Source: a virus
Taxonomy: Duplodnaviria; Heunggongvirae; Uroviricota; Caudoviricetes
Virus record (IMG/VR): IMGVR_UViG_2737471865_000001
Location: 1 to 34,668 of that record
Strand: one strand, 5' to 3'
Length of the DNA stretch: 34,668 nt
In this document: one piece after another, positions 2,104 through 34,443 of the stretch
Layout: each line of letters opens with the position of its first letter
Position numbering within the stretch: position 1 is the first letter of the stretch
Notes under the pieces: model-generated
What the model was told of the DNA's origin: nothing
Databases searched by the model: none
Seen by the model: the letters and a program-made list of their open reading frames with translations, nothing else
Made by a program: the position numbers and the translations under genes

Positions 2104-2610
2104 TTAAATTGCGTGAATAGCGTGACGAGGGAAGGGGAGAGTTACTGGTGCAAAGGGTATATCGTCGTCAAAATCCATCGGAGGTTCGTTGTGTTGTGCT
2201 GGTGATGATTGCTGCTGTGGCTTCTGTGATTGCCTGCTGGCTGCTTGTTGTTTGCTGTCGCCAATGCCGCCAAGCATTTGCATCACGCCATTAATTCCGA
2301 CATGAACCTCGGTTGTGTAACGGTCTTGCCCTGACTGGTCTTTCCACTTTCTGGTTCTCAGCATTCCCTCGAAATAAATCTGATCACCTTTTTTCACATA
2401 CTGCCCCACGACCTCAGCCAGTTTCCCGGATACAGCAACACGATGCCATTCAGTCAATTCCTTTTGCTCGCCAGTATTTTTATCTCGCCATTGTTCTGAC
2501 GTGGCTATTGTCAGGTTAGCGAACGCTGTTCCTGATGGTGAGTATCGAACTTCCGGGTCTTGTCCTACCCGACCAAGGATAATCACCTTATTTACGCCTC
2601 TGCTTGCCAT
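2104..2610 (-). CDS. ssb: single-stranded DNA-binding protein (SSB) with a C-terminal extension past the DDDIPF tip
   Basis: OB-fold N-terminus [23 protein letters not shown]...; Gly/Gln-rich linker; acidic MDFDDDIPF motif. Unlike canonical SSB, the ORF continues for 15 more codons ([15 protein letters not shown]) before TAA at 2104..2106. Confidence 0.9.
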
Positions 2611-3318
2611 TTATGCCGCCTGTTTTAGTTCGTTAACTCTGATGTTCATTACCTGAACGCATTTAGCCTGCGCATCCTCATTGCCAGCCATTAATTGCCA
2701 GTCACGCTGATAACGCTCGATGAGTTTTTTCTTGTCAGTTTCTGTTGACGCATAATCGCTGAAGTCTTTCAGGATTTGTTCGCAGTCAACCGATGGAGAT
2801 TTCTGGTTGGTATTTTCTGGTGATGGTTTGTTATCTGATGCTGGGATTGCCCATCCCGGAAGCGATGGAGGGAGCCAGTAAAATCCTGTTCCATCCTTCA
2901 GTTTTGCCCTGTGCCACCCCTGCTTTTTATCGAGAGATGTTTGTGCGAAACCTTCCTCAAGGTTATACAGATACCGACCGATTCCCCACTGAACGGCAGC
3001 GCGCTTCATTGCACCGGAACGACCACCTTTGACGGCTTCTACCTGCGTGTTTTCAGCAGCATCCCATTTGGTTACCCATTCGGAATCAATCTTTATTGAT
3101 ATGCCGCATTCAACGCCGCCGTTGTTGGGAATATCGCGGTATTCATTGCGCCATCCTGCTTTGCCGCAAACATCGTCCAGGCGCTTCATGATTGCCCGGT
3201 TCGTGACATAAGCCAGCACCATAGCCCACACCTTGCCATCGCGTGTTTTACCGCTTTGCTGTATTCGCCATTCGATATCTTCAGGGCTGAATGGCTCATC
3301 GAATTTGTTCAAATCCAT
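2611..3318 (-). CDS. single-strand annealing recombinase, Rad52-like N-terminal domain with P22 Erf-like C-terminal tail
   Basis: N-terminal region has the Rad52/Sak-like motif KRAAVQWGIGRYLYN. The C-terminal ~60 aa (ILKDFSDYASTETDKKKLIERYQRDWQLMAGNEDAQAKCVQVMNIRVNELKQAA) closely resembles the C-terminus of P22 Erf as I recall it. Located next to ssb. Confidence 0.7.
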   Translation of the reverse strand: MDLNKFDEPFSPEDIEWRIQQSGKTRDGKVWAMVLAYVTNRAIMKRLDDVCGKAGWRNEYRDIPNNGGVECGISIKIDSEWVTKWDAAENTQVEAVKGGRSGAMKRAAVQWGIGRYLYNLEEGFAQTSLDKKQGWHRAKLKDGTGFYWLPPSLPGWAIPASDNKPSPENTNQKSPSVDCEQILKDFSDYASTETDKKKLIERYQRDWQLMAGNEDAQAKCVQVMNIRVNELKQAA

Positions 3319-3405
3319 AATTCACCTCAGAATGGACATGGCCCAAGGAAATAACGCTGATTTAATACTTCAGTCTTTGCCGCATTTAAAAATACGCGAA
3401 CACCT

Positions 3406-3576
3406 TCACGATCTCCCTTCTGGCGATACATTAACGCCTGCTGCGTGTACATGCGTCTCTGTAACTTGCTCTCCTTCACTGTGGTTGCAAGTGACATGAA
3501 TATCTCCTTCGTTACCGATTAATTCTTTCATCTGACGAATGAATTCTTCGTCTGACCAGTTATCTGTAAAACTCAT
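3406..3576 (-). CDS. hypothetical small early protein (56 aa from the ATG)
   Basis: Track ORF starts at a GTG; the ATG at 3574..3576 gives MSFTDNWSDEEF... and overlaps the upstream stop as ATGA (translational coupling). Confidence 0.4.
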   Translation of the reverse strand: MSFTDNWSDEEFIRQMKELIGNEGDIHVTCNHSEGEQVTETHVHAAGVNVSPEGRS

Positions 3577-3725
3577 TTCCTGCGATACCACGGAAGGTTG
3601 ATAGCTGATTTCATCGCTTTATTTGCTTCAAGCCACATTTTTGAATCACCAATAAATCTGGCTATTACTGCTTTGTTCTGTGCAGCACGAAGCATCTGGT
3701 GATTGATGGCTATTTCATTGCGCAT
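3573..3725 (-). CDS. Kil-like small protein (50 aa), not in the ORF track
   Basis: My translation: MRNEIAINHQMLRAAQNKAVIARFIGDSKMWLEANKAMKSAINLPWYRRK. The FIGD.KM core and position (between cIII-like and the recombination genes) resemble lambda Kil from memory. GGAGG RBS. Confidence 0.4.
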   Translation of the reverse strand: MRNEIAINHQMLRAAQNKAVIARFIGDSKMWLEANKAMKSAINLPWYRRK

Positions 3726-3844
3726 AACGCCTCCAGTTGTTTCTTTGCTGCTCTGATTAATTGTTTAACTCGGCGTGATAATTCAGATTCGTGCGGGTAG
3801 AAAGCGGACATGACGCCGCTACCCGCTAAAATATATTCATTCAT
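3710..3844 (-). CDS. cIII-like small protein (44 aa), not in the ORF track
   Basis: My translation: MNEYILAGSGVMSAFYPHESELSRRVKQLIRAAKKQLEALCAMK. Resembles the lambda cIII N-terminal and central region (M.YAIAG...ESLLERITRKLR) from memory. Start overlaps the HNH stop as TAATG. Confidence 0.4.
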   Translation of the reverse strand: MNEYILAGSGVMSAFYPHESELSRRVKQLIRAAKKQLEALCAMK

Positions 3845-4356
3845 TATTTGCTCCTGTAGAATTCGCCGTGATGCTTTCTGGCAAAGTCGCAGTAAGCTTT
3901 TTTGGCATCTTCTAATTCATTAAAGTACCCTAGATGTTTTTTCTTTCCGTTTAATTTCCCATAGGCAGCCCACTTTCTACTTTCCTTCTTCCATGTGACT
4001 CCTTTGCAACCTGATTTGTTGAGGGTGTTTATTTTACTATTCATTGAATTCTGTGAGTAAGTTGCAAGCCTCAGATTGCAAATTCTGTTATCTGTCTTAA
4101 TGCCATTTATATGGTCGATAATACCTTCAGGCTCAACACCGAAAGTGATAATCCATGCAAGTCTATGTGCAGCATAGTGTCTTCCGTTAATGAAAATCCT
4201 TAAGTAGCCGCTTGTTGTTATTGTTCCGGCAGTTCCACCTATCTTCCTTGCTCCATAAGATTTTAGCCATGTGAACTCACCAGAAATAGGGTTATATTTG
4301 ACAACATTATTAATCTCACTTAGGGAAATTAATTCAAGAATCTTTATAAATGCCAT
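3844..4356 (-). CDS. HNH homing endonuclease with AP2-type DNA-binding domain
   Basis: HNH_3-type motif GIIDHINGIKTDNRICNLRLATYSQN followed by an AP2-like GVTWKKESRKWAAYGKLNGKKKHLGYFNELEDAKKAY. AT-rich coding sequence. The track start is TTG at 4369..4371; ATG at 4354..4356 with an AGGA RBS is more likely. Confidence 0.8.
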   Translation of the reverse strand: MAFIKILELISLSEINNVVKYNPISGEFTWLKSYGARKIGGTAGTITTSGYLRIFINGRHYAAHRLAWIITFGVEPEGIIDHINGIKTDNRICNLRLATYSQNSMNSKINTLNKSGCKGVTWKKESRKWAAYGKLNGKKKHLGYFNELEDAKKAYCDFARKHHGEFYRSK

Positions 4357-4437
4357 TTTATATCCTATCAACTGCGTTCATTAATCAGCGTTTACGCTCA
4401 TGAATAAACACCTCTCGTGAAGCGTTATTGTTATGCA

Positions 4438-4466
4438 TATAAAAAAGCCCTCACATTGGAGGGCAA
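4438..4466 (-). terminator. rho-independent terminator (minus strand) upstream of the HNH gene
   Basis: Hairpin GCCCTC-acattg-GAGGGC (4447..4464), followed on the minus strand by TTTTTT. Confidence 0.6.
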
Positions 4467-4600
4467 AGAAGATTTCCAATAATCAGAACAAGTCGGCTCC
4501 TGTTTAGTTACGAGCGACATTGCTCCGTGTATTCACTCGTTGGAATGAATACACAGTGCAGTGTTTATTCTGTTGTTTATGCCAAAGATAAAGGCTACCA

Positions 4601-4801
4601 TCAGGCAGCCTTGTTGTTCTGTTTACCAAGTTCTCTGGCAATCATTGCCGTCGTTCGTATTGCCCATTTATCGACATATTTCCCATCTTCCATTACAGGA
4701 AACATTTCTTCAGGCTTAACCATGCATTCCGATTGCAGCTTGCATCCATTGCATCGCTTGAATTGTCCACACCATTGATTTTTATCAATAGTCGTAGTCA
4801 T
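4601..4801 (-). CDS. ral: restriction-alleviation protein Ral
   Basis: 66-aa Cys-rich protein MTTTIDKNQWCGQFKRCNGCKLQSEC... matching lambda Ral as I recall it, in the expected position between N and cIII. Confidence 0.6.
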   Translation of the reverse strand: MTTTIDKNQWCGQFKRCNGCKLQSECMVKPEEMFPVMEDGKYVDKWAIRTTAMIARELGKQNNKAA

Positions 4802-4983
4802 ACGGATAGTCCTGGTATTGTTCCATCACATCCTGAGGATGCTCTTCGAACTCTTCAAATTCTTCTTCCATATCTAACCTCAAATAAGTGGTTTGCTGCC
4901 TAATTTCATTTTCTGGCGACCAACACAAGTCACACCCATTTCACTGCGTGGCTTGCGGTAGTAAATTAGATTTGTTCAGACAA

Positions 4984-5006
4984 TAAAAAACCCACCGAAG
5001 TGGGCT
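4984..5006 (-). terminator. rho-independent terminator (minus strand, tL1-like)
   Basis: Hairpin CCCAC-cgaa-GTGGG (4991..5004), followed on the minus strand by TTTTTTATTG; immediately after the stop of the 114-aa gene. Confidence 0.6.
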
Positions 5007-5349
5007 ATGACCATTTTTTATTTGGATTTCGTTGGTGAGCGTGATTAACAACTCTGTGCATTACATCCTCATATTTTTCATCTTCAATTTTTTCGACATC
5101 GCGAGGAAATGGTGTTGCTAATGCTTTGTCAACTTTGTCCATTGGTTCTTCATTAATTTTATATTCAGGACCGTCATCTATAGCATTAAATCCAGGTGTT
5201 ACACCGTTTTTTAATGCATATGCTATCCTTTTTTCCCATCTCGCTATTCTCCTCCTGTCTCGAGATGTAAGACCTCTATCAGATACTTTTCTGTTTTGTC
5301 CGCGGTCAGGATTAACATAAATAGTCTTTTTCACCATAAGCATACTCAA
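5005..5349 (-). CDS. hypothetical hydrophilic protein (114 aa) between N and ral
   Basis: ORF whose stop region overlaps the N start codon as ATGA; no recognisable domain. Occupies the position where lambda carries sieB-region accessory genes. Confidence 0.5.
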   Translation of the reverse strand: MSMLMVKKTIYVNPDRGQNRKVSDRGLTSRDRRRIARWEKRIAYALKNGVTPGFNAIDDGPEYKINEEPMDKVDKALATPFPRDVEKIEDEKYEDVMHRVVNHAHQRNPNKKWS

Positions 5350-5651
5350 TAAGCACCGTACGGTAGTTTACTGTACAATTTTATTTTTTGGACTGCATGT
5401 ATTTTGTTTCCTAATGGGTTTGAATCTTTGTAATAAATACTTCTATTTTTTCGAACGACTTCTTCTTTCTTCTTGCAGCAAAGGCTTCCTAGTGATGCTG
5501 CTTTGTCTGCTCTGACGCAACCAGAGAGCTTTAGCGCAATTTTTCGCGCCAGTGCTTCATTACTGCGTCGCTCGGCAATAAGTTCTGCTCTGCGAGCTTT
5601 GTAGCGGCTTTTTGCCGTACCTTTGGATTCTTTCCAGACAATGGTTACCAT
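5346..5651 (-). CDS. N: N-like transcription antiterminator, phage-21 type
   Basis: Arginine-rich motif GTAKSRYKARRAELIAERR matches the phi21 N RNA-binding peptide from memory. ATG at 5649..5651 is preceded by AAGGAG. Sits immediately downstream of PL and nutL. Confidence 0.8.
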   Translation of the reverse strand: MVTIVWKESKGTAKSRYKARRAELIAERRSNEALARKIALKLSGCVRADKAASLGSLCCKKKEEVVRKNRSIYYKDSNPLGNKIHAVQKIKLYSKLPYGAY

Positions 5652-5761
5652 GATGGTCTCCTTTAAGTGGCTTTGGCGCATGACGCGTCGAGGTGCTTAT
5701 CTTCTCGATCGCTGTCTTGCAGCTGCAATTCGCGCCATCCCCAAAACCACTCAAGTTCTGG

Positions 5762-5966: not shown

Positions 5967-6617
5967 TTAAGGAAGGTTTGCTAGCTTGGCATCAACGACA
6001 ACGCCAATGATTTTACAGTTCCCATTGATTTCAATCATTGGGTATTGTGGATTGAGTGGTTTCAGGAATTTTCTACCGGCATCAATAACTAACTTTTTGA
6101 ATGTCGCCTCGTTTTCTCCTTCAAGTTTGGCGACTACCAGCTTTCCATTACGTGGTTCGACTTCTGGGTCGACGAGAATAATCATCCCCTCAGGAATACT
6201 CAGTCCTGCCGGGGCAGTCATTGAATCGCCTTTAACGTCGAGCCAAAAAGAGTCTTCAGAACAATCTACCGTTGTGTCGTACCAGTTATCTATTGCACGC
6301 CTATGATATGGCTCTACAGCTTCCATCCAACATCCTGCGCTTACCCAACTAATTAGAGGATACGAACCTCTTGGATCATGCCTGCTGTGATAGGCAATGT
6401 TTGAAAGACTATCCTCTCCTTTCAACAGGTAATCAGGGGAGCACTGCAAAGCCTTGGCTAAGGCCAATAGGTTTTCGCCATTGGGCTCAGTTTCAGATCG
6501 CTCCCATTGGGAAATAGCAACATTAGACACGCCAACCATCTTGCCAAGGGCAGCCTGCCTAATCTTGAGTTCTTTTCTGCGAGCGCGAATACGCTCACCC
6601 ATCAGTTGTGTATTCAT
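5967..6617 (-). CDS. c2: prophage repressor C2 (CI-type; HTH plus LexA-like S24 peptidase domain)
   Basis: 216 aa: N-terminal HTH (QAALGKMVGVSNVAISQWER) and C-terminal autocleavage domain (GDSM...VVAKL). Essentially matches P22 C2 as I recall it. Confidence 0.93.
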   Translation of the reverse strand: MNTQLMGERIRARRKELKIRQAALGKMVGVSNVAISQWERSETEPNGENLLALAKALQCSPDYLLKGEDSLSNIAYHSRHDPRGSYPLISWVSAGCWMEAVEPYHRRAIDNWYDTTVDCSEDSFWLDVKGDSMTAPAGLSIPEGMIILVDPEVEPRNGKLVVAKLEGENEATFKKLVIDAGRKFLKPLNPQYPMIEINGNCKIIGVVVDAKLANLP

Positions 6618-8434: not shown

Positions 8435-11341
8435 ATGACGCCAAGTGAACTTAGCGATCTGCTTTGGGTGCAGGTTGACAGGGTGGCTCCGCACCTGTTG
8501 CCAAACGGCAAGAAAGAGGGGCATGAGTGGGTTGCCGGTAACGTCAACGGTGACAAGGGAAACAGCCTTAAGGTCAACCTTAGCGGCAAGAAAAAATGGG
8601 CTGATTTCGCTGAGGGAGACGGCGGTGACATGCTTGATTTGTGGATGGCATGTCGTGGAATTAACCTGCATCAGGCGATGCATGAAGCGAAAGCATTTCT
8701 CGGAATCAAGGATGACGATCACCATTTCGATGCCAAACGTGAGAAGAAATTCTCCAGACCTGATCGCAAGAAGATCGCCCGCTACGTTACCAGAACAGAA
8801 TCCCATCTTGAGTACCTGCAATCGCGTGGTATATCGCCAGAAATCGTAAAGCGCTACGAGGTTGTCAGCGGCAAGGTGTGGAATGGAGAGCGGGAACTGG
8901 ATGCTCTGGTGATTCCGTACAAACGCGATGGTGAGTTGTTGCAGGTCAAGCGAATCAGCACTGAGCGCCCGGACGGGAAGAAAGTCATTATGGCAGAAGG
9001 TGATTGCGAACCTTGTCTGTTCGGATGGCAGGCTCTGGACGCTGGCGTGAGGGCGGTTGTGCTTTGCGAAGGCGAAATTGATTGTATGAGCTATGCGCAA
9101 TACGGCATCTCGGCGTTATCCGTGCCGTTTGGTGGCGGGAAAGGCGCTAAGCAACAGTGGATTGAGTTTGAGTATCACAACCTCGACAGGTTTGAGGAAA
9201 TATTCATCTCGATGGACGTTGATGATGTTGGTCGTGAAGCCGCAAGGGAAATCGCAAGCCGACTCGGTGAACATCGTTGCCGTCTTGTTACTCTGCCGTA
9301 CAAAGACATCAACGAATGCCTGATGAACGGTGTTACCGAGGATGAAATCTGGCAGTACATTGGCACGGCATCCTACTTCGATCCTGAAGAACTCTACAGC
9401 GCGCGAGAGTTTTACCATGACACTATCAACGCTTTCTACGGCAAGCAGCAGTATCTGTTTAATCCACCGTGGGAATCTCTGGCAGATAAATTCCAGTTCC
9501 GTGAGGCAGAATTGACGCTGGTCAATGGTGTGAACGGTCACGGAAAAGCCTGTCCACTTGATGAACCAATTCTGCTCGCTAATGGTGAATGGACTACTCA
9601 CGGGGATGTAAAAATTGGCGATCAGGTGGCATCAGTAGACGGCAATCCGTCAACTGTCACCGGGATATTCCCGCAGGGTGTTAGAGATGTTTACCGAGTC
9701 ACATTTGAAGATGGTCGTTATGTTGATTGCGCAGGCGATCACCTATGGGAGGTCACTAGTCGTGGATTCACGAAAGGCGAGAAGCGCCGCGTGATAGACA
9801 CCTTCGAGCTGAAACGGTTGAGTGAAACGAAGAGGCACAAAAATGGCGTCAGGATACCCGAAATAACTGGTGACTTTGGCGACCACTCAGAGCCATTAGC
9901 ATGGGTTATCGGCTCCCTTCTCGGGGATGGTAGTCTTAGCAATGGGAGCGTGAAGTTTTCAAACGTCGAGCCATACATGATCGAGCGTATGAAGGCTGAA
10001 CTGCCTGATTACAACTTCTCTGGAGATGGTAAGGACTGGCTGATATCAACGGCGCGTGGTCAGGTAAATCCACTCATGGAGACCCTGCGAGTTTATGGAC
10101 TAATGGGGTGCACAGCAAAAAACAAATTCATCCCTCGTGTGTTTTTTTCCGCAAACAAATCAACGCGTATAGGAATGCTGTGTGGTCTGCTTGAAACGGA
10201 TGGTTATGTCGAGAAGGATGGAACGCTTGTTTTTTCCTCAGCAAGTGAAGAACTGCGTAATGGGGTTGTTCAACTGGTTAACTCACTCGGCGGTTCATGC
10301 CGGACGCGAGTTAAAACTGGCGTGACATACACATACAAGGGCGATAAGCGGCATGGGATGGATTCATATGAGGCAAGGATACGACTGACAAGGGAAATCA
10401 GGGAGGCCATCCGTTCACCACGACTCAATGGCAGATTAACTGCGCATCGATTCGAGGGGTGTGGGGTATTCGTCAGGAATGTTGAAAAAATCGGCAATGC
10501 AGAATGCTTGTGTATCATGGTCGATCACCCTCGCCACCTGTATGTAACCAGAGGATATGTGGCAACGCATAACACCGAGGTTGTCGGGCATATGGCACTT
10601 GAGGCAATGCGTCAGGGTGTGAAGACGTGCATCGCGTCACTTGAGCTGAAGCCTGGTATTCTCCTTAAGCGCCTTACCCGTCAGGCGACGTGCTGCAAGA
10701 TGCCGCCAGTGCTGGAAATTGACTCTGCATTTAAATTTTATGACGAAAGACTTTGGGTGTTTGGTCTGACCGGAACGGCGAAAGCCGACAGGCTGATCGA
10801 AATATTCGACTACGCTCGCCGCCGATACGGCATCCAGTTATTCATCATCGACAGCCTGATGAAATGCGGCATAGGTGACGATGATTATAACGGGCAGAAG
10901 GCGTTTGTTGACTCGATTTGCGACTTCAAAAACAAAACAAACTCCCACGTCATTCTCGTTACTCACTCGCGAAAAGGAGACAGCGAAGAAAAACCAACCG
11001 GGAAAATGGACGTAAAAGGCTCTGGAGCGATAACAGACCTGACAGACAACCTTTTCATCATCTGGCGTAACAAGGCTCGCGAGAGAGCGTTACAGAGAGT
11101 TCAGAGTGGTGAAAAGATGTCAGAGAAGGACGAACAGCTACTGGCATCTCCGGCATCTGTTTTGATGCTTGAAAAACAACGTAACGGCGAAGGTTGGGAA
11201 GGTGGTGTCCCGTTGTTCCTTGACGAGCAATCGCACCAGTTCCTGCAACTTGAATCAGGGTCGCCATATAGCTACATCGCTAATATGCCGAAATCGGAAT
11301 ATGACGAGGCGTGGCGACAGGAAAACGTGACGGAGTATTAA
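8435..11341 (+). CDS. bifunctional DNA primase / SF4 (DnaB/T7 gp4-like) helicase, interrupted by an in-frame intein
   Basis: 968 aa. N-terminal primase region with TOPRIM motifs (VLCEGEIDCMS; ISMDVDDVGRE). P-loop NGVNGHGKA at residues 365..372. C-terminal helicase motifs LFIIDSLM (Walker B), HVILVTHSRKGD and KGSGAITDLTDNLFII align with T7 gp4 helicase motifs. Residues 373..713 are an intein. Confidence 0.88.
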   Translation: MTPSELSDLLWVQVDRVAPHLLPNGKKEGHEWVAGNVNGDKGNSLKVNLSGKKKWADFAEGDGGDMLDLWMACRGINLHQAMHEAKAFLGIKDDDHHFDAKREKKFSRPDRKKIARYVTRTESHLEYLQSRGISPEIVKRYEVVSGKVWNGERELDALVIPYKRDGELLQVKRISTERPDGKKVIMAEGDCEPCLFGWQALDAGVRAVVLCEGEIDCMSYAQYGISALSVPFGGGKGAKQQWIEFEYHNLDRFEEIFISMDVDDVGREAAREIASRLGEHRCRLVTLPYKDINECLMNGVTEDEIWQYIGTASYFDPEELYSAREFYHDTINAFYGKQQYLFNPPWESLADKFQFREAELTLVNGVNGHGKACPLDEPILLANGEWTTHGDVKIGDQVASVDGNPSTVTGIFPQGVRDVYRVTFEDGRYVDCAGDHLWEVTSRGFTKGEKRRVIDTFELKRLSETKRHKNGVRIPEITGDFGDHSEPLAWVIGSLLGDGSLSNGSVKFSNVEPYMIERMKAELPDYNFSGDGKDWLISTARGQVNPLMETLRVYGLMGCTAKNKFIPRVFFSANKSTRIGMLCGLLETDGYVEKDGTLVFSSASEELRNGVVQLVNSLGGSCRTRVKTGVTYTYKGDKRHGMDSYEARIRLTREIREAIRSPRLNGRLTAHRFEGCGVFVRNVEKIGNAECLCIMVDHPRHLYVTRGYVATHNTEVVGHMALEAMRQGVKTCIASLELKPGILLKRLTRQATCCKMPPVLEIDSAFKFYDERLWVFGLTGTAKADRLIEIFDYARRRYGIQLFIIDSLMKCGIGDDDYNGQKAFVDSICDFKNKTNSHVILVTHSRKGDSEEKPTGKMDVKGSGAITDLTDNLFIIWRNKARERALQRVQSGEKMSEKDEQLLASPASVLMLEKQRNGEGWEGGVPLFLDEQSHQFLQLESGSPYSYIANMPKSEYDEAWRQENVTEY
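9551..10573 (+). mobile_element. intein (341 aa) with LAGLIDADG homing-endonuclease domain, inserted in the helicase Walker A loop
   Basis: Begins with Cys immediately after GHGKA (CPLDEPILLANGEW, Hint block A). Two LAGLIDADG-type motifs (VIGSLLGDGSL and LCGLLETDGYV). Ends YVATHN followed by Thr as the +1 extein residue. Flanking exteins together form a contiguous helicase domain. Confidence 0.85.
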
Positions 11342-13144: not shown

Positions 13145-13859
13145 GTTAATAAATGGCAATGCCATCAAAATGACAAGCATTGAAATCGCTGAGTTGGTTG
13201 GTAAGCGTCATGACAATGTGAAACGTACCATCGAAACGCTGGCTAAAAATGGTGTTATCCGGCTTCCTCAAATTGAGGTTTCCGAAAGAATCAATAACTT
13301 AGGGTTCAATGTTCAGTACGAGCATTACGTCTTCGAAGGCGAACAAGGTAAGCGAGACAGTATTGTCGTTGTTGCCCAGTTGTCGCCAGAGTTCACCGCT
13401 CGCCTTGTTGACCGCTGGCGAGAGCTTGAAGAAGCTGCGGTTAATATCCCCAAAACGCTACCGGAAGCGTTGCGCCTTGCTGCTGATCTTGCCGAGAAGA
13501 AAATGCAACTGGAAAACCAGCTCGCAATTGCCGCACCTAAAGTTGAGTTTGCCGATCGAGTTGGCGAGGCCAGCGGAATTTTGATTGGAAACTATGCAAA
13601 GGTTGTTGGTATTGGTCCAAACAAACTGTTTGCATGGATGCGCGATCACAAAATCCTTATTGCTTCAGGTTCCCGGCGCAATGCGCCAATGCAGGAATAT
13701 ATGGATCGCGGCTATTTCACAGTGAAAGAAACAGCTGTCAACACAAATCACGGAATACAGATATCGTTCACCACAAAAATCACCGGGCGTGGTCAACAGT
13801 GGCTGACCAGAAAGCTGCTCGATAACGGAATGCTGAAAGTAACCGGGGAGGCTGCTTAA
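13137..13859 (+). CDS. Rha / KilAC-type phage regulatory (antirepressor-like) protein
   Basis: N-terminal Rha-like winged-helix segment (MTSIEIAELVGKRHDNVKRTIETLAKNG) and C-terminal KilA-C/AntB-like region. Confidence 0.65.
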   Translation: MNELINGNAIKMTSIEIAELVGKRHDNVKRTIETLAKNGVIRLPQIEVSERINNLGFNVQYEHYVFEGEQGKRDSIVVVAQLSPEFTARLVDRWRELEEAAVNIPKTLPEALRLAADLAEKKMQLENQLAIAAPKVEFADRVGEASGILIGNYAKVVGIGPNKLFAWMRDHKILIASGSRRNAPMQEYMDRGYFTVKETAVNTNHGIQISFTTKITGRGQQWLTRKLLDNGMLKVTGEAA

Positions 13860-14149
13860 TGGCTAACCTACGCAAAGAAGCGCGCGGAAGAGAATGCCAG
13901 GTACGTATTTACGGCGTATGCAATGGCAACCCTGAAACTACAGTTCTGGCACATTACCGGATGGCTGGAATTTGCGGAACGGGAATGAAGCCTGACGACC
14001 TGATCGGCGCATGGGCTTGTAGCGACTGCCACGCGGAGATCGACCGACGCACCCATAATCTCGACAACAAAGACGCCAGACTTTACCACCTCGAAGGCGT
14101 GATCAGGACGCAGGCGATACTGCTGAAGGAGGGGAAGATTAAGCCATGA
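13859..14149 (+). CDS. YbcO-like (DUF1364) nin-region protein, putative nuclease
   Basis: 96 aa with Cys/His pattern GRECQVRIYGVCNGNPETTVLAHYR...CSDCHAEIDRRTH, resembling DLP12 YbcO. Confidence 0.65.
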   Translation: MANLRKEARGRECQVRIYGVCNGNPETTVLAHYRMAGICGTGMKPDDLIGAWACSDCHAEIDRRTHNLDNKDARLYHLEGVIRTQAILLKEGKIKP

Positions 14150-17143: not shown

Positions 17144-17290
17144 ACATCTGCAGTAAACCGCGCATCGCAGCGCGTAACAATCCCGAGTCTTTCAGAAAGC
17201 TGAGCCTGAGAACTGCCGTATATGGTGGCGACCATCTCGGGGCGGCTTTTCTGTGCGAACAGGCTCATCTTTCTAAAAGGTAAAGACGCT

Positions 17291-17779
17291 ATGAACCAAT
17301 TAGAAGAAAAGCTTCAAAGAATGATTTCCTTATACAAGGAAGATAGCTGCCAAAAAGTTCCTGAAAACATCGCAGAGTTAATGGAATTGGCAAGTGAATT
17401 TTCTGGCATGCTTAAGTCGTCAGGTGTTCGGTCAGCGTTCTTTGTTGAAATGCTGATGCACGGCGGACTTATGGCAACAATGAGACGTGTAATGGAAGAC
17501 CAGAGAAAAGAACCTCCTCAGGTATACGTTTTGTCATCGAAGAAAACTGGGCTAACCAAAATTGGGTATTCATCCAACATTCCACAACGCATCAAATCGC
17601 TTGGCAACTCTGGACCAGACTGCTTGAAGCTTGAGTGCCTGATCCCTGGTGGAAGAGAAACTGAAAACATGCTTCATCGCAAATTTGCCGCAAAGAGAAA
17701 GCACGGTGAATGGTTCGCCCTGTCCAAGGATGACATTGAGGGATTGAAATCTGTAGCGATTACTTCCGATGGCTATTAA
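17291..17779 (+). CDS. T5orf172-domain (GIY-YIG-superfamily-like) protein with helical N-terminal extension
   Basis: C-terminal region VYVLSSKKTGLTKIGYSSNIPQRIKSLGN...ENMLHRKFAAKRKHGEWFAL matches the T5orf172/MUG113 signature (VYVL..G..KIG...N...R...L, then LH..F...R..GEWF). Start taken at ATG 17291 (MNQLEEK...). Confidence 0.6.
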   Translation: MNQLEEKLQRMISLYKEDSCQKVPENIAELMELASEFSGMLKSSGVRSAFFVEMLMHGGLMATMRRVMEDQRKEPPQVYVLSSKKTGLTKIGYSSNIPQRIKSLGNSGPDCLKLECLIPGGRETENMLHRKFAAKRKHGEWFALSKDDIEGLKSVAITSDGY

Positions 17780-19065: not shown

Positions 19066-19506
19066 ATGGCGCGCCCAACAAAGTATCAAGAGGCGTATGC
19101 CGAACAGGCACGCAAACTGTGCTTGCTGGGCTATACAGACGCAGAACTTGCTGATTTCTTCGAAGTCAGTGAGTCAACTATTAACAAGTGGAAGCTTGAT
19201 TATCCTAAGTTTTCGGAGTCCATAAAAAAGGGTAAGGCCGTCGCTGATGCAGAAGTTAGTGACCGTCTTTATCAACGCGCTATGGGCTTCGTGGCTCCAG
19301 ACATCGATATTCGTGTTATTGAAAACAGAATTGTCGAAACTCCGCTTGAGAAGTATTACCCGCCTGATACAACCGCTGCCATCTTCTGGCTTAAGAATCG
19401 ACAGAAGGATAAATGGCGCGACAAGGTTGATCACGAGCTAACAGGCAAAGACGGCGGCGCAATCCAGATTGAAACATCACCGATGAGCACTCTATTCGGA
19501 AAATGA
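19066..19506 (+). CDS. terminase small subunit
   Basis: 146 aa with HTH-like GYTDAELADFFEVSESTINKWK; stop overlaps the TerL start as ATGA. Confidence 0.75.
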   Translation: MARPTKYQEAYAEQARKLCLLGYTDAELADFFEVSESTINKWKLDYPKFSESIKKGKAVADAEVSDRLYQRAMGFVAPDIDIRVIENRIVETPLEKYYPPDTTAAIFWLKNRQKDKWRDKVDHELTGKDGGAIQIETSPMSTLFGK

Positions 19507-20918
19507 CCTCGATTAATCCTATCTTTGAACCGTTCATTGAGGCGCATCGCTACAAAGTCGCCAAAGGCGGTCGAGGTAGCGGTAAATCATGGGCAATTGC
19601 GAGGCTGCTTGTTGAGGCGGCACGTCGGCAGCCTGTGCGTATTCTTTGCGCTCGTGAACTGCAAAACAGTATCAGCGATTCGGTAATCCGGTTGCTTGAA
19701 GACACCATCGAGCGGGAAGGGTATTCGGCCGAGTTTGAAATTCAGCGTTCCATGATTCGTCATCTCGGAACGAATGCTGAGTTCATGTTCTACGGCATCA
19801 AAAACAACCCGACGAAGATTAAATCGCTAGAAGGTATTGATATCTGCTGGGTGGAGGAAGCGGAAGCGGTAACGAAGGAATCATGGGATATCCTGATACC
19901 AACCATCCGCAAGCCGTTTTCCGAAATATGGGTGAGCTTTAACCCTAAGAACATCCTCGACGATACCTATCAGCGATTCGTCGTAAATCCTCCCGATGAT
20001 ATTTGCCTGCTGACGGTGAACTACACCGACAACCCGCATTTTCCTGAAGTTCTCCGTCTGGAGATGGAAGAGTGTAAACGCAGAAACCCGACACTGTATC
20101 GTCACATCTGGCTTGGTGAGCCAGTAAGCGCAAGTGATATGGCAATCATCAAACGTGAATGGCTTGAAGCCGCAACCGATGCGCACAAGAAACTCGGATG
20201 GAAAGCGAAAGGCGCTGTTGTCTCTGCGCATGACCCATCAGATACAGGGCCAGATGCTAAAGGTTATGCATCGCGTCACGGTTCGGTTGTTAAGCGCATT
20301 GCCGAAGGCCTGCTGATGGACATCAACGAGGGTGCTGACTGGGCTACTTCGCTGGCGATTGAAGACGGCTCTGACCACTACCTGTGGGATGGTGATGGTG
20401 TTGGTGCCGGGCTACGCAGACAGACAACGGAAGCGTTCTCCGGCAAGAAAATCACCGCCACGATGTTCAAGGGCAGCGAATCGCCATTCGATGAAGATGC
20501 GCCATATCAGGCCGGAGCATGGGCTGATGAAGTTGTACAGGGCGACAATGTTCGCACTATTGGCGATGTATTCCGCAATAAGCGAGCGCAATTCTATTAC
20601 GCGCTGGCTGACAGGCTGTATCTGACATATCGGGCGGTTGTTCACGGTGAGTATGCAGACCCAGACGACATGCTGAGTTTCGACAAAGAAGCGATAGGCG
20701 AGAAGATGCTGGAGAAGCTGTTTGCAGAACTGACGCAGATTCAGCGCAAATTCAATAATAACGGGAAGCTGGAGCTTATGACTAAGGTCGAAATGAAGCA
20801 GAAGCTCGGTATTCCATCTCCTAACCTGGCTGATGCGCTGATGATGTGTATGCATTGCCCGGAGTCGGCTGCGCAACCCGACTATTCCAGTTACTCAATT
20901 CCTTGTGGTGTAGGTTGA
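19503..20918 (+). CDS. terminase large subunit
   Basis: 471 aa; Walker A KGGRGSGKS, Walker B-like ICWVEEAE, C-terminal nuclease region. Confidence 0.93.
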   Translation: MTSINPIFEPFIEAHRYKVAKGGRGSGKSWAIARLLVEAARRQPVRILCARELQNSISDSVIRLLEDTIEREGYSAEFEIQRSMIRHLGTNAEFMFYGIKNNPTKIKSLEGIDICWVEEAEAVTKESWDILIPTIRKPFSEIWVSFNPKNILDDTYQRFVVNPPDDICLLTVNYTDNPHFPEVLRLEMEECKRRNPTLYRHIWLGEPVSASDMAIIKREWLEAATDAHKKLGWKAKGAVVSAHDPSDTGPDAKGYASRHGSVVKRIAEGLLMDINEGADWATSLAIEDGSDHYLWDGDGVGAGLRRQTTEAFSGKKITATMFKGSESPFDEDAPYQAGAWADEVVQGDNVRTIGDVFRNKRAQFYYALADRLYLTYRAVVHGEYADPDDMLSFDKEAIGEKMLEKLFAELTQIQRKFNNNGKLELMTKVEMKQKLGIPSPNLADALMMCMHCPESAAQPDYSSYSIPCGVG

Positions 20919-26196: not shown

Positions 26197-26781
26197 ATGC
26201 TTTCTGAGAATGCTAAAGATATACCTGGATTTGAAGGTGTTTATGCCGTAACAGAAGATGGCAGGGTGTATTCTCACTCACGTGTTGTTAAGGCTGCGCA
26301 TGGCAGCACGCAACTCAGAAAGGGGCGCTGGTTAAAGCCTAAAATAAATCAGGGAAGGGTGCTTTATAATATCGGAGCAAAATGGACTTTTGCCCATCGA
26401 ATCGTTGCAATGACATTCCTGCCAAATCCTGAAAACAAGCCTCAGGTAAATCATATTGATGGCAATCCACTCAATAATAACGTCAATAATCTTGAGTGGT
26501 GCACTCAAAGCGAAAACATCAAACATGCATACGCCACAGGATTAAAGAAACCAATCAAGTTTTTCGGAACCAAGCACCCAAAACACAAGTTGAGTGATGA
26601 CGATGTTCTTGCAATCAAGTCATCAAAAGAAAGCTTGTCAGTAATTGCGGCTAAGTACGGGATATCTAAGACCTGGGCAAGTAGGCTAAAGCGTGATGCT
26701 AACTGGGTTCATATAAAGGTTGATTCCAATGGCAATACAACAACTACCACTAATGAAGGGATTAGGGAAAAGTGCGGTTAA
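26197..26781 (+). CDS. HNH homing endonuclease (NUMOD4-like N-terminus plus HNH_3 motif)
   Basis: GFEGVYAVTEDGRVYS (NUMOD4-like) and QVNHIDGNPLNNNVNNLEWCTQSEN (HNH). AAGGAG RBS. AT-rich; its 3' end overlaps the recoded start of gene 10. Confidence 0.85.
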   Translation: MLSENAKDIPGFEGVYAVTEDGRVYSHSRVVKAAHGSTQLRKGRWLKPKINQGRVLYNIGAKWTFAHRIVAMTFLPNPENKPQVNHIDGNPLNNNVNNLEWCTQSENIKHAYATGLKKPIKFFGTKHPKHKLSDDDVLAIKSSKESLSVIAAKYGISKTWASRLKRDANWVHIKVDSNGNTTTTTNEGIREKCG

Positions 26782-33455: not shown

Positions 33456-33500
33456 TCCAACCGACTGTTACCATATTAACCTCCAGATAGCCATGGATGG

Positions 33501-33800
33501 CTATTCTGACATCCTTTTTAATTTATTGTATGACTCTATAGAATCTGTGCACAACTTCATGAACTCTTGAAGTGACATTCCTAGGCGAGAAATTTCCGTA
33601 TTCAAAAAACGTTCAATAAATTCATCTCCGCCGGGCATCTGTGTTGCTTCTTGAAAAGCAAACATTTGTTTAAATGTTCCACACATACCAGCAACTTTAG
33701 CTGTAACTAACATGTCGTTAGCAAATTTCAGATCCTTATCTTGCGATTGTGCAAGACCACTAATTAGAAAACAGAATGCACCTATAACCCATCGCTTCAC
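33501..33800 (-). CDS. small secreted (signal-peptide) protein of unknown function at the sieA-position locus
   Basis: 99 aa; N-terminal signal peptide MKRWVIGAFCFLISGLAQS; mature ~80-aa part with two Cys; GGGAGA RBS; gene is visibly AT-rich. Confidence 0.55.
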   Translation of the reverse strand: MKRWVIGAFCFLISGLAQSQDKDLKFANDMLVTAKVAGMCGTFKQMFAFQEATQMPGGDEFIERFLNTEISRLGMSLQEFMKLCTDSIESYNKLKRMSE

Positions 33801-33825
33801 ACCAATCTCCCACTAAGGTAATAAT

Positions 33826-34011
33826 ATGACCATAGAAGAACGCCTGAACAACATTGAGTTGAATCAAACCCTGCTTGACCAGCGACTTTCAGATCTTGAG
33901 CTTAAAGATCTAGATGCGCAAATATCGGAAGCAGAAGCCAAGCTCTCCAGCCTAAACCACCGCAAGAAGCAAATCCGCAACAGAATTACTCAGGGACGCG
34001 GAAGCTGTTGA
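33826..34011 (+). CDS. hypothetical small coiled-coil protein (61 aa)
   Basis: ORF with AAGG RBS; charged, leucine-heptad-like; its start region lies within 30 bp of the divergent secreted-protein gene start, so one of the two may not be expressed as drawn. Confidence 0.3.
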   Translation: MTIEERLNNIELNQTLLDQRLSDLELKDLDAQISEAEAKLSSLNHRKKQIRNRITQGRGSC

Positions 34012-34195
34012 GGTGGGATGCAAGGTCTCTATCGTTAAAATCAAGGCTGCTAATCATTTCATTGTAAATAGCGTTTTTATCTTCCATTGGCAGTCTTGAG
34101 TAAACCAGACACAGAGCATATTTCAGGGAGTTTAGCTCTTTCTCTAGCTCTTCCTTGCTTGACGTTTTTGACTTAATAAACTGTTTTTTATTCAT
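33986..34195 (-). CDS. hypothetical small protein (69 aa) downstream of the mnt-like gene
   Basis: ORF whose start overlaps the mnt-like stop (operon-like coupling); AT-rich. Confidence 0.4.
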   Translation of the reverse strand: MNKKQFIKSKTSSKEELEKELNSLKYALCLVYSRLPMEDKNAIYNEMISSLDFNDRDLASHLNSFRVPE

Positions 34196-34443
34196 TTTGT
34201 ATCCTTACCATACATGGTTTTCAGCGTCTCAACATCGTGTTCAAGATCTATCAATCGTGATGCTATAGTTGCAAGGTCTAGTGCTTGAATGTGTTTATTT
34301 TTTTCTGTCCACGCTTCAAGTGCCGCGACCATCTCAGCATTTAATGAACGAGAATTAGCCTCAGCCAGTTCAATAAGACGTTCCTTTATCTCTACAGGAA
34401 GCCTCAGATTCACTTGAGGGTTTTTGTACTTACGATCAGACAT
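34192..34443 (-). CDS. mnt: Mnt-like ribbon-helix-helix repressor
   Basis: 83 aa from ATG at 34441..34443 (the track start is an upstream GTG). KNPQVNLRLPVEIKERLIELAEANSRSLNAEMVAAL fits the Arc/Mnt RHH fold, with a C-terminal helical oligomerisation tail; same length as P22 Mnt. Confidence 0.7.
   Translation of the reverse strand: MSDRKYKNPQVNLRLPVEIKERLIELAEANSRSLNAEMVAALEAWTEKNKHIQALDLATIASRLIDLEHDVETLKTMYGKDTK

Follow-up and report, generated by a model that had tools for sequence, protein, structure and literature searches.

Homing endonucleases have been studied mainly in lytic phages (T4, SPO1, ICP1). Lambda-like temperate phages are the classic model of mosaic genome evolution, and we know of no characterised homing system in this group. 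Proteins of the HNH-AP2 type are already recognized as a family of homing endonucleases (Magnani, Sjolander & Hake 2004, as cited in PMC10448857). The 'IPA-HNH' genes of vibriophage ICP1 belong to the HNH-AP2 family (Barth et al. 2023, PMC10448857), and the Xanthomonas phages Xp10, OP1 and Xop411 carry HNH-AP2 genes (PMC2248197). Here, we analyze a member of this family in the virus record IMGVR_UViG_2737471865_000001, whose full length of 34,668 nucleotides is referred to as the window. The window is a P22-like lambdoid prophage with its early-left (pL) operon on the minus strand, and in this operon a gene encoding a protein with HNH_3 and AP2 domains (the HNH gene) stands directly upstream of cIII. 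We propose that this gene is a free-standing HNH-AP2 homing-endonuclease gene and that its lineage is probably specialized for the junction at which the cIII leader meets the start of cIII in lambdoid phages, a reading that we hold with moderate confidence.

The boundaries of the insertion are defined by prophages that do not carry the gene. An empty allele in E. coli 7/2 (L003) matches the window at 3573-3826 (99.2%) and 4406-4871 (97.4%) and contains 49 bp where the window has 579 bp. Because the two flank matches end at 3826 and 4406, the insertion is a cassette that spans 3827-4405 and replaces 49 bp. The cassette comprises a 49-nt 5' untranslated region (UTR), the HNH open reading frame (ORF), a replacement Shine-Dalgarno (SD) sequence and the first six codons of cIII. 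In the order of transcription, with the boundaries marked by slashes, the empty allele reads terminator, ...AACGCTTCACTCGAGGCGTTTT / CGTTATGCAATCAAATATAAGGAGTTACCCATGATGCACTTTCAGCTC / GCGGGTAGCGGC..., and the HNH allele reads ...GAGGTGTTT / ATTCATGAGCG...HNH ORF...AGGAGCAAATAATGAATGAATATATTTTA / GCGGGTAGCGGC.... The cassette (36.4% G+C) and the HNH ORF (3844-4356; 37.4%) are poorer in G+C than the flanking genes (~42%) and the window as a whole (47.5%).

The prevalence of the cassette was assessed in 50,697 phage genome records and 5,426 complete E. coli genomes. The HNH gene was found at the cIII locus in none of the 50,697 phage records, though 385 of them have the flanks. Some part of the kil-to-ral interval is present in 2,275 of the 5,426 E. 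coli genomes. The full cassette is present in eight of the 5,426 and an IS1-cut copy in two more, and all of these copies adjoin cIII. The cassette is 99.1-100% identical in all carriers, and the IS1-truncated copies also retain at least 99% identity. Relative to the 357 E. coli genomes with this type of cIII, approximately 10 have the HNH gene (~3%). A 49-nt junction query detected the cIII 5' end encoding MNEYIL only beside the HNH gene, and ~349 other genomes with the same cIII match only from codon 7 onward. The same search of E. coli genomes yielded no footprint allele, that is, no MNEYIL start of cIII without the HNH gene. Thus, the locus exhibits the sporadic presence at a defined site, with intact empty alleles in close relatives, by which a homing-endonuclease gene is recognized. 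A first-pass annotation of the window had proposed a free-standing gene of the homing-endonuclease type in the early-left operon and had named uniform presence in all relatives as an outcome that would speak against it. Because empty-site alleles are abundant, presence is not uniform, and the comparative evidence supports the proposal. For a second lineage (L009; 67% identity), the flanks were not found in the complete E. coli genomes. In E. coli WP8-S18-CRE-02 and GSH8M-2 (L008, locus 2518-3569), IS1A cuts the HNH gene in its 5' half, and a further IS3-family element adjoins the truncated gene.

The cassette resides in mosaic backbones that differ on both sides. The recombination genes of HNH-bearing prophages are ERF with anti-RecBCD, Rad52 with SSB, or RecT with Gp157, and the gene upstream is ral, ea10, a 252-nt ORF or a 183-nt ORF. 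The flanks are 97-99% identical, and their polymorphisms are common to alleles with and without the HNH gene. The only flank single nucleotide polymorphism (SNP) that is diagnostic for HNH presence lies at window 4410, five bases outside the cassette; kil is 99% identical between the two types of allele and contains no diagnostic SNP. SNP 4410 and the six initial codons of cIII accompany the cassette, whereas the other flank SNPs do not, and in each backbone the recombination breakpoints are no more than a few bases away from the cassette. Given that the flank SNPs are freely mixed and only 4410 is diagnostic, the alignments indicate that the moving unit is essentially the cassette itself.

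The description of the gene in the first-pass annotation, an AT-rich HNH_3 and AP2 gene between ral and a cIII-like ORF, is borne out by an intact reading frame of 170 codons for amino acids and by Pfam matches. The ORF scores above the threshold of Pfam HNH_3 (PF13392; E=1.7e-15, 56.8 bits, cut-off 24.8) and slightly below the gathering cut-off of Pfam AP2 (PF00847; E=1.1e-6, 29.2 bits, cut-off 33.3), and it matches PHROG 99, 'HNH endonuclease', at 1.5e-68. The N-terminal part of the HNH protein resembles I-HmuI, which is also its best PDB sequence match. The His-Me finger residues D81, H82, N94 and N103 align with I-HmuI residues D74, H75, N87 and N96 and are invariant in the family alignment of 39 homologues. 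An AlphaFold model built on these homologues is confident (predicted local distance difference test score, 91.4). The protein displays the beta-beta-alpha-metal fold of a His-Me finger nuclease, and its C-terminal AP2 domain (approximately residues 116-166), which is also supported by Foldseek, displays the three-stranded sheet packed on a C-terminal helix that defines the AP2/ERF fold. Based on the predicted fold and the invariant catalytic residues, the HNH protein appears to be an intact His-Me-finger nuclease that is joined to a sequence-specific DNA-binding domain.

Is the HNH gene maintained as a functional gene? The ratio of nonsynonymous to synonymous substitution rates (dN/dS) is 0.08-0.29 where computable, and synonymous sites are saturated outside the 3' end; the gene is therefore under purifying selection as a protein. 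A pseudogene or a decaying element was considered and rejected because the full copies are intact, the catalytic residues do not vary and dN/dS stays far under 1; damage is confined to the copies cut by IS1. Eight full-length copies cover the whole 579-bp cassette at 99% identity or more, and the four HNH copies whose RefSeq records were read are all annotated as intact 513-nt genes. A role as a defence-system component was also rejected; the sole PADLOC match of the gene is a generic 'homing endonuclease' model, and no NCBIfam model matches the protein. In RefSeq, an identical protein is listed as 'MULTISPECIES: HNH endonuclease [Escherichia]' on 370 contigs, and the coding sequence is named WP_000874115.1 in the records of three HNH-bearing genomes. 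A literature search found no paper that mentions WP_000874115. The HNH gene adds a new, uncharacterised member to a known family and, as an annotated RefSeq protein, is otherwise ordinary. The gene has its own SD, AGGA, at 4366-4363. No promoter-like site was detected on the minus strand between 4357 and 4470, i.e. none inside the cassette ahead of the HNH gene. The 5' UTR is not more stable than shuffled sequence (z=0.03), and an RNA-family search of 3300-5400 returned chance-level matches only.

The 3' end of the HNH gene is interlocked with the translation start of cIII. The HNH stop codon TAA (3846-3844) and the cIII ATG (3844-3842) share one base to form TAATG, as the first-pass annotation had read. 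The last HNH codons are TAC AGG AGC AAA TAA-TG, and codons Arg168 and Ser169 contain the cIII SD AGGAG, which is separated from the cIII ATG by 6 nt, the spacing found in lambda. The first six residues of cIII are MNEYIL in the HNH allele versus MMHFQL in the empty allele. The HNH ORF of nine lineages, the window among them, has the C-terminus ...HHGE(F/Y)YR(S/N)K, and its stop codon overlaps or abuts the cIII ATG (TAATG; TGA-ATG in one lineage). In contrast to this junction type A, the HNH ORF of junction type B (Cedecea, Serratia, Pantoea) has a different end, and cIII has its own SD 17-25 nt downstream. The embedded AGGAG is kept in 7 of 8 lineages of junction type A, where the Arg codon is always the rare AGG. 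At unchanged amino acids, codon identity is 0.73-0.91 in the last 20 codons versus 0.35-0.55 over most of the gene. This rise in synonymous constraint over the last 20 codons indicates that selection acts additionally on the HNH 3' end in its role as translation-initiation region of cIII. The rebuilt SD and the stop/start overlap put cIII directly behind the HNH gene, and the cassette would in this way limit the harm to its carrier. Such an embedded ribosome-binding site would illustrate how an element can insert beside a dosage-sensitive regulator without silencing it. However, given the native cIII SD of junction type B, the coupling of HNH and cIII is not obligatory. Directly 3' of the cassette, the GC-rich tract AGCGGCGTCATGTCCGC does not vary among four lineages, although their HNH proteins share only 64-69% identity. 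Since AP2 domains have been reported to prefer GC-rich DNA, AGCGGCGTCATGTCCGC is a candidate AP2 site, although we can only speculate that it may serve as such and it may equally reflect a constraint on cIII.

The link to cIII extends beyond the closely related copies. Among relatives of at least 48% identity with readable downstream sequence, homologues at 64-69% identity (two E. coli lineages and Atlantibacter) are all located directly upstream of cIII in the pL operon, as is a 48-56% group from Yersinia, Serratia ficaria, Cedecea, Pantoea latae, two metagenomic lineages and Hafnia phage Meifeng. The adjacency is kept although the cIII genes, recombinases and upstream genes differ between lineages. 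In lineage L019/L020, the cIII position is occupied by a 56-aa ORF with no match to the cIII profile. Approximately 155 loci from GTDB and IMG/VR, which are samples whose listed matches do not include the closest relatives, served as a distant comparison set only. Among the matches listed, a cIII-like ORF was found within 500 nt downstream in none of 75 GTDB loci of at most 51% identity and in none of 79 more distant IMG/VR loci, and the single IMG/VR locus at 53% identity does have one downstream. Neighbour-joining places the 12 cIII-linked proteins in a clade of their own, apart from 77 others (bootstrap 144/200). These comparisons provide a new result, namely that the whole HNH lineage is, as judged from sequence, tied to the cIII start with clade-wide positional fidelity. 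In the Hafnia phage vB_HpaM_Meifeng (MW749008; L103, locus 2959-3115), an unannotated cIII-like ORF, MTPCLSGCPFMGAS..., begins at a TAATG overlap with the HNH-AP2 gene MIFENG_38. Next to a RecT or ERF recombinase gene, the same early-left operons contain a different HNH_3 gene (L007, 249-716; L013, 1129-1599), so lambdoid pL operons have at least two distinct HNH insertion spots; 33 weak matches at 72% identity in the E. coli cassette search may correspond to this recombinase-side gene.

The sequence upstream of the cassette belongs to the prophage backbone. The first-pass annotation had placed a strong minus-strand terminator immediately upstream of the HNH gene and implicitly connected it with the insertion. 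The upstream hairpin and its U-run are real: a stem-loop, GCCCUC-CAAUGU-GAGGGC, at 4464-4447 is followed by U6 at 4446-4441, which constitutes a G+C-rich hairpin directly before a U-run on the transcribed strand, as in an intrinsic terminator. The hairpin has a 6-bp stem with five G-C pairs and a 6-nt loop (-11.1 kcal/mol, z=-3.3 versus shuffles). However, 'strong' is generous for a 6-bp stem, and 84 nt lie between the end of the terminator and the start codon of the HNH gene. Lambda, phage 21, HK106, mEp506 and E. coli 7/2, none of which has the HNH gene here, share this hairpin, and it is annotated as a rho-independent terminator in phage 21 and HK106. Because it is found in lambda-homologous sequence and in HNH-free alleles, the terminator is a backbone element, and the idea that it forms part of the insertion was rejected. 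We presume that it belongs to the tL2 group of lambda.

The HNH gene had also been assigned to the position of ea10 in lambda, which the alignments contradict. Window 4436-4871 corresponds to lambda 33920-34357 with 97.9% identity, from just upstream of ea10 through ral and orf28, and window 4406-4436 corresponds to lambda 33492-33522, the cIII leader. This alignment implies that lambda ea10 is itself an insertion, at window 4436/4437. The HNH cassette starts at 4405/4406, 31 bp from the ea10 insertion point, and ea10 (DUF2528), the HNH gene and cIII occur in tandem in E. coli 2017-02-2CC. The HNH gene is therefore not a replacement for ea10, given the different insertion points and the coexistence of both genes. 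The ea10 insertion boundaries (lambda 33522-33920) are visible in comparison with the window, mEp506 and E. coli 7/2. The 5' boundary of the HNH cassette falls in the U-run directly after the cIII-leader hairpin. This hairpin folds with -14.5 kcal/mol (z -4.0) in the empty allele versus -10.2 kcal/mol (z -1.8) in the HNH allele; it is followed by UUUUCGUU in the empty allele, and the U-run is interrupted in the HNH allele.

How would such a gene be expressed and spread? Because no promoter-like site precedes the HNH gene, we infer delayed-early transcription from pL by N-antiterminated read-through of the backbone terminators, following the lambda paradigm. The HNH protein is translated from its own SD, and its fold and conserved residues show a His-Me-finger nuclease of the I-HmuI kind that is joined to an AP2 domain for DNA binding. 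In an encounter of a phage that has the gene with a relative that lacks it, through co-infection or with a resident prophage, the protein would nick or cut the empty cIII-leader allele. Recombinational repair would then copy the 579-bp cassette, and with it the six initial codons of cIII, probably aided by the single-strand-annealing recombinase that is encoded downstream in the same operon. The last HNH codons restore an SD at the spacing seen in lambda, and with the overlap of stop and start codons cIII lies directly behind the HNH gene; cIII translation would thereby be coupled to HNH translation.

The presence/absence polymorphism at an exact site, the rarity of the gene, its near-identity across backbones and its clade-wide position support the proposal of a homing-endonuclease gene specialized for the cIII junction. 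Several considerations weigh against it. Ordinary module exchange in the conserved flanks could alone spread the cassette, and joint inheritance of HNH and cIII as a single module would account equally well for the conserved position. The ~3% prevalence speaks against strong drive. Moreover, no candidate immunity-conferring polymorphism was found outside the replaced 49 bp, so any immunity must come from the replacement itself.

The possibility of ordinary exchange leads to the alternative that the HNH gene is a passive accessory gene ('moron') that spreads by homologous recombination in the conserved flanks and is kept for some benefit to the phage, such as nuclease attack on competitor or host DNA. 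Both flanks are strongly conserved across lambdoid phages and are known as mosaic joints, ea10 has inserted 31 bp away, and the low prevalence of the gene fits an accessory status; HNH genes were found to occur sporadically in a survey of early-left operons of lambdoid phages, which advises caution on their roles (PMC12315714). However, a passive gene leaves unexplained why the same position is occupied in a clade diverged to ~48% and in none of the ~155 distant loci listed (the locus at 53% identity apart), and why the breakpoints lie so close to the cassette, a few bases away at most, in all backbones. This explanation is plausible for the recent spread of the cassette and poor for its clade-wide position, and we consider it unlikely overall.

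Two further explanations assign the gene a role in the operon itself. The HNH gene may have been domesticated as a regulator of cIII, in which case HNH translation or AP2 binding near the cIII start would set cIII output, the nuclease activity would be secondary or lost, and the lineage would be retained for its influence on the lysis-lysogeny decision. The cIII SD inside the HNH ORF, the stop/start overlap, the synonymous constraint in the last 20 codons and the cassette 5' end, which breaks the U-run after a leader hairpin that is weaker in the HNH allele, are all in line with such a function. Nonetheless, the catalytic residues are invariant across the clade, Cedecea, Serratia and Pantoea keep a separate native cIII SD, and most phages with the same cIII are without the HNH gene, which makes domestication rather improbable in our estimate, although regulation of cIII may form an added layer. 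A nuclease of the recombination module that makes DNA ends for the annealing protein and SSB, as proposed for the ES18 HNH gene, would suit a gene located in the same operon ~0.5 kb upstream of the Rad52-type annealing protein and SSB, and HNH genes inside some lambdoid Rec modules are deemed genuine members of these modules (PMC12315714). In the window, however, cIII, kil and small ORFs lie between the HNH gene and the Rec module, and a sequence-specific AP2 domain suits site-specific cutting rather than end processing. Because the gene occurs alike with four unrelated recombinase types (ERF, Rad52, RecT and DUF3799/PD-(D/E)XK modules) and is missing from ~97% of otherwise similar prophages, membership in the recombination module is very unlikely.

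Beyond the proposal of a homing-endonuclease gene at the cIII junction, we raise as a tentative and rather doubtful extension that the HNH gene represents an old, site-faithful homing lineage that has become fused to the cIII start, so that cIII synthesis in carriers depends on HNH translation. In that case, the lysis-lysogeny decision could depend on a selfish gene too. If true, the locus would be the first homing system amenable to genetic work in temperate phages of the lambda type and an example of a selfish nuclease gene that takes over the ribosome-binding site of the host gene it invades. The strict cIII linkage and the built-in ribosome-binding site give the HNH gene its added interest. 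Homing, co-conversion, and cost or benefit to the carrier are directly testable with the cassette because its boundaries are exact, natural empty alleles are abundant (e.g. HK106) and the phage family has excellent genetics.

The window contains other elements of the homing type. A NUMOD4 and HNH_3 gene (194 aa, 26197-26781, plus strand) is located between the P22-like head-completion genes gp4 and gp10; it is present in 7 of 920 E. coli genomes with those flanks, and the others are ~673 bp shorter. A LAGLIDADG intein of 341 aa (residues 373-713; window 9551-10573, plus strand) interrupts the Walker-A loop (GHGKA/C...HN/T) of a Toprim primase/helicase ORF (8435-11341). The intein allele occurs in 79 of 296 E. 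coli genomes, and the others are 1026 nt shorter. A MUG113/T5orf172 protein (185 aa, 17222-17779, plus strand) is encoded by a possible fourth selfish nuclease gene; the T5orf172 class has been handled as a homing-endonuclease family in ICP1 phages (PMC10448857). Thus, the three homing-type elements counted in the first-pass annotation are real, and all three are minority alleles. The combination is rare because each element is individually uncommon (~10/357, 7/920 and 79/296). For a single prophage to contain three or possibly four elements of this type is unusual in statistical terms, not mechanistically surprising.

The pL operon is arranged in the order LexA-type repressor, N-like antiterminator, 114-aa ORF, orf28-like ORF, ral, HNH, cIII, kil, small ORFs, Rad52-type protein and SSB (Table 1). 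The ral gene is 97.9% identical to that of lambda. Two more terminator-like hairpins are found upstream on the pL transcript (minus strand), one at 4989-5006 after the 114-aa ORF and the other at 4591-4612 overlapping the end of ral. In the nin region, a YbcO-family putative nuclease (13859-14149, plus strand; Pfam 1.4e-43) is ordinary for lambdoid phages.

Table 1. Features of the early-left operon and of the HNH insertion in the window
Feature	Position	Strand	Evidence or remark
LexA-type repressor	5967-6617	-	pL operon
N-like antiterminator	5346-5681	-	Weak Pfam N_peptide match, arginine-rich N-terminus
ral, backbone gene upstream of the HNH gene	4601-4801	-	Pfam Ral 1.6e-48
Intrinsic-terminator-like hairpin with U6	4441-4464	-	Scan and fold; backbone
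cIII-leader hairpin	4407-4426	-	Homologous to the lambda 33492-33522 region; alignments
Insertion cassette, 579 bp	3827-4405	-	Defined against empty-site alleles; replaces 49 bp
HNH_3 and AP2 endonuclease gene, 170 aa	3844-4356	-	ATG at 4356; Pfam, PHROG
cIII Shine-Dalgarno AGGAG	3851-3855	-	In HNH codons Arg168-Ser169, read directly from sequence
cIII, HK022 type, 44 aa	3710-3844	-	Pfam cIII 6.8e-26
kil, conserved backbone gene downstream	3573-3725	-	Pfam Lambda_Kil 1.7e-20
Rad52-type annealing protein	2611-3318	-	pL operon, ~0.5 kb downstream of the HNH gene
SSB	2104-2610	-	pL operon, downstream of the HNH gene

The HNH gene of the window shares features with several known systems and differs from each. 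Like the HNH-AP2 genes of ICP1 and the Xanthomonas phages, it combines an N-terminal HNH nuclease with a C-terminal AP2 domain and is free-standing, phage-borne and sporadic. Unlike these, the cIII-linked clade, known here from sequence, resides in temperate lambdoid prophages of Enterobacterales, is fixed to the site 5' of cIII and includes the ribosome-binding site of the host gene. The catalytic residues align with those of I-HmuI from Bacillus phage SPO1 (PDB 1U3E). However, I-HmuI, which nicks one strand and acts on both alleles, is encoded within a group I intron and has a C-terminal helix-turn-helix instead of AP2. The gp74-type HNH genes associated with the terminase in HK97-like phages represent another occurrence of the HNH (His-Me finger) motif in a lambdoid-type phage, but these genes adjoin the terminase, are without AP2 and act in cos cleavage, whereas the HNH gene of the window lies in the early-left operon, far from the packaging genes (19066-20918). 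The ea10/terminator region of lambda corresponds to the same variable pL interval between ral and cIII and contains the same two hairpins; ea10, however, encodes a DUF2528 protein 31 bp upstream of the HNH cassette boundary and is not an alternative occupant of the site.

The free-standing Seg and Mob enzymes of the T-even phages offer a parallel in the mode of spread. Their genes are intergenic, lie between conserved genes and show presence/absence among close relatives, and their spread by 'intronless homing' and marker exclusion, through cleavage of the endonuclease-free allele and co-conversion, is what we would expect for the HNH cassette. However, the Seg enzymes belong to the GIY-YIG family, and the T-even phages are lytic. 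In a further difference from the T-even systems, the cassette of the window overlaps and rebuilds the translation start of the downstream gene.

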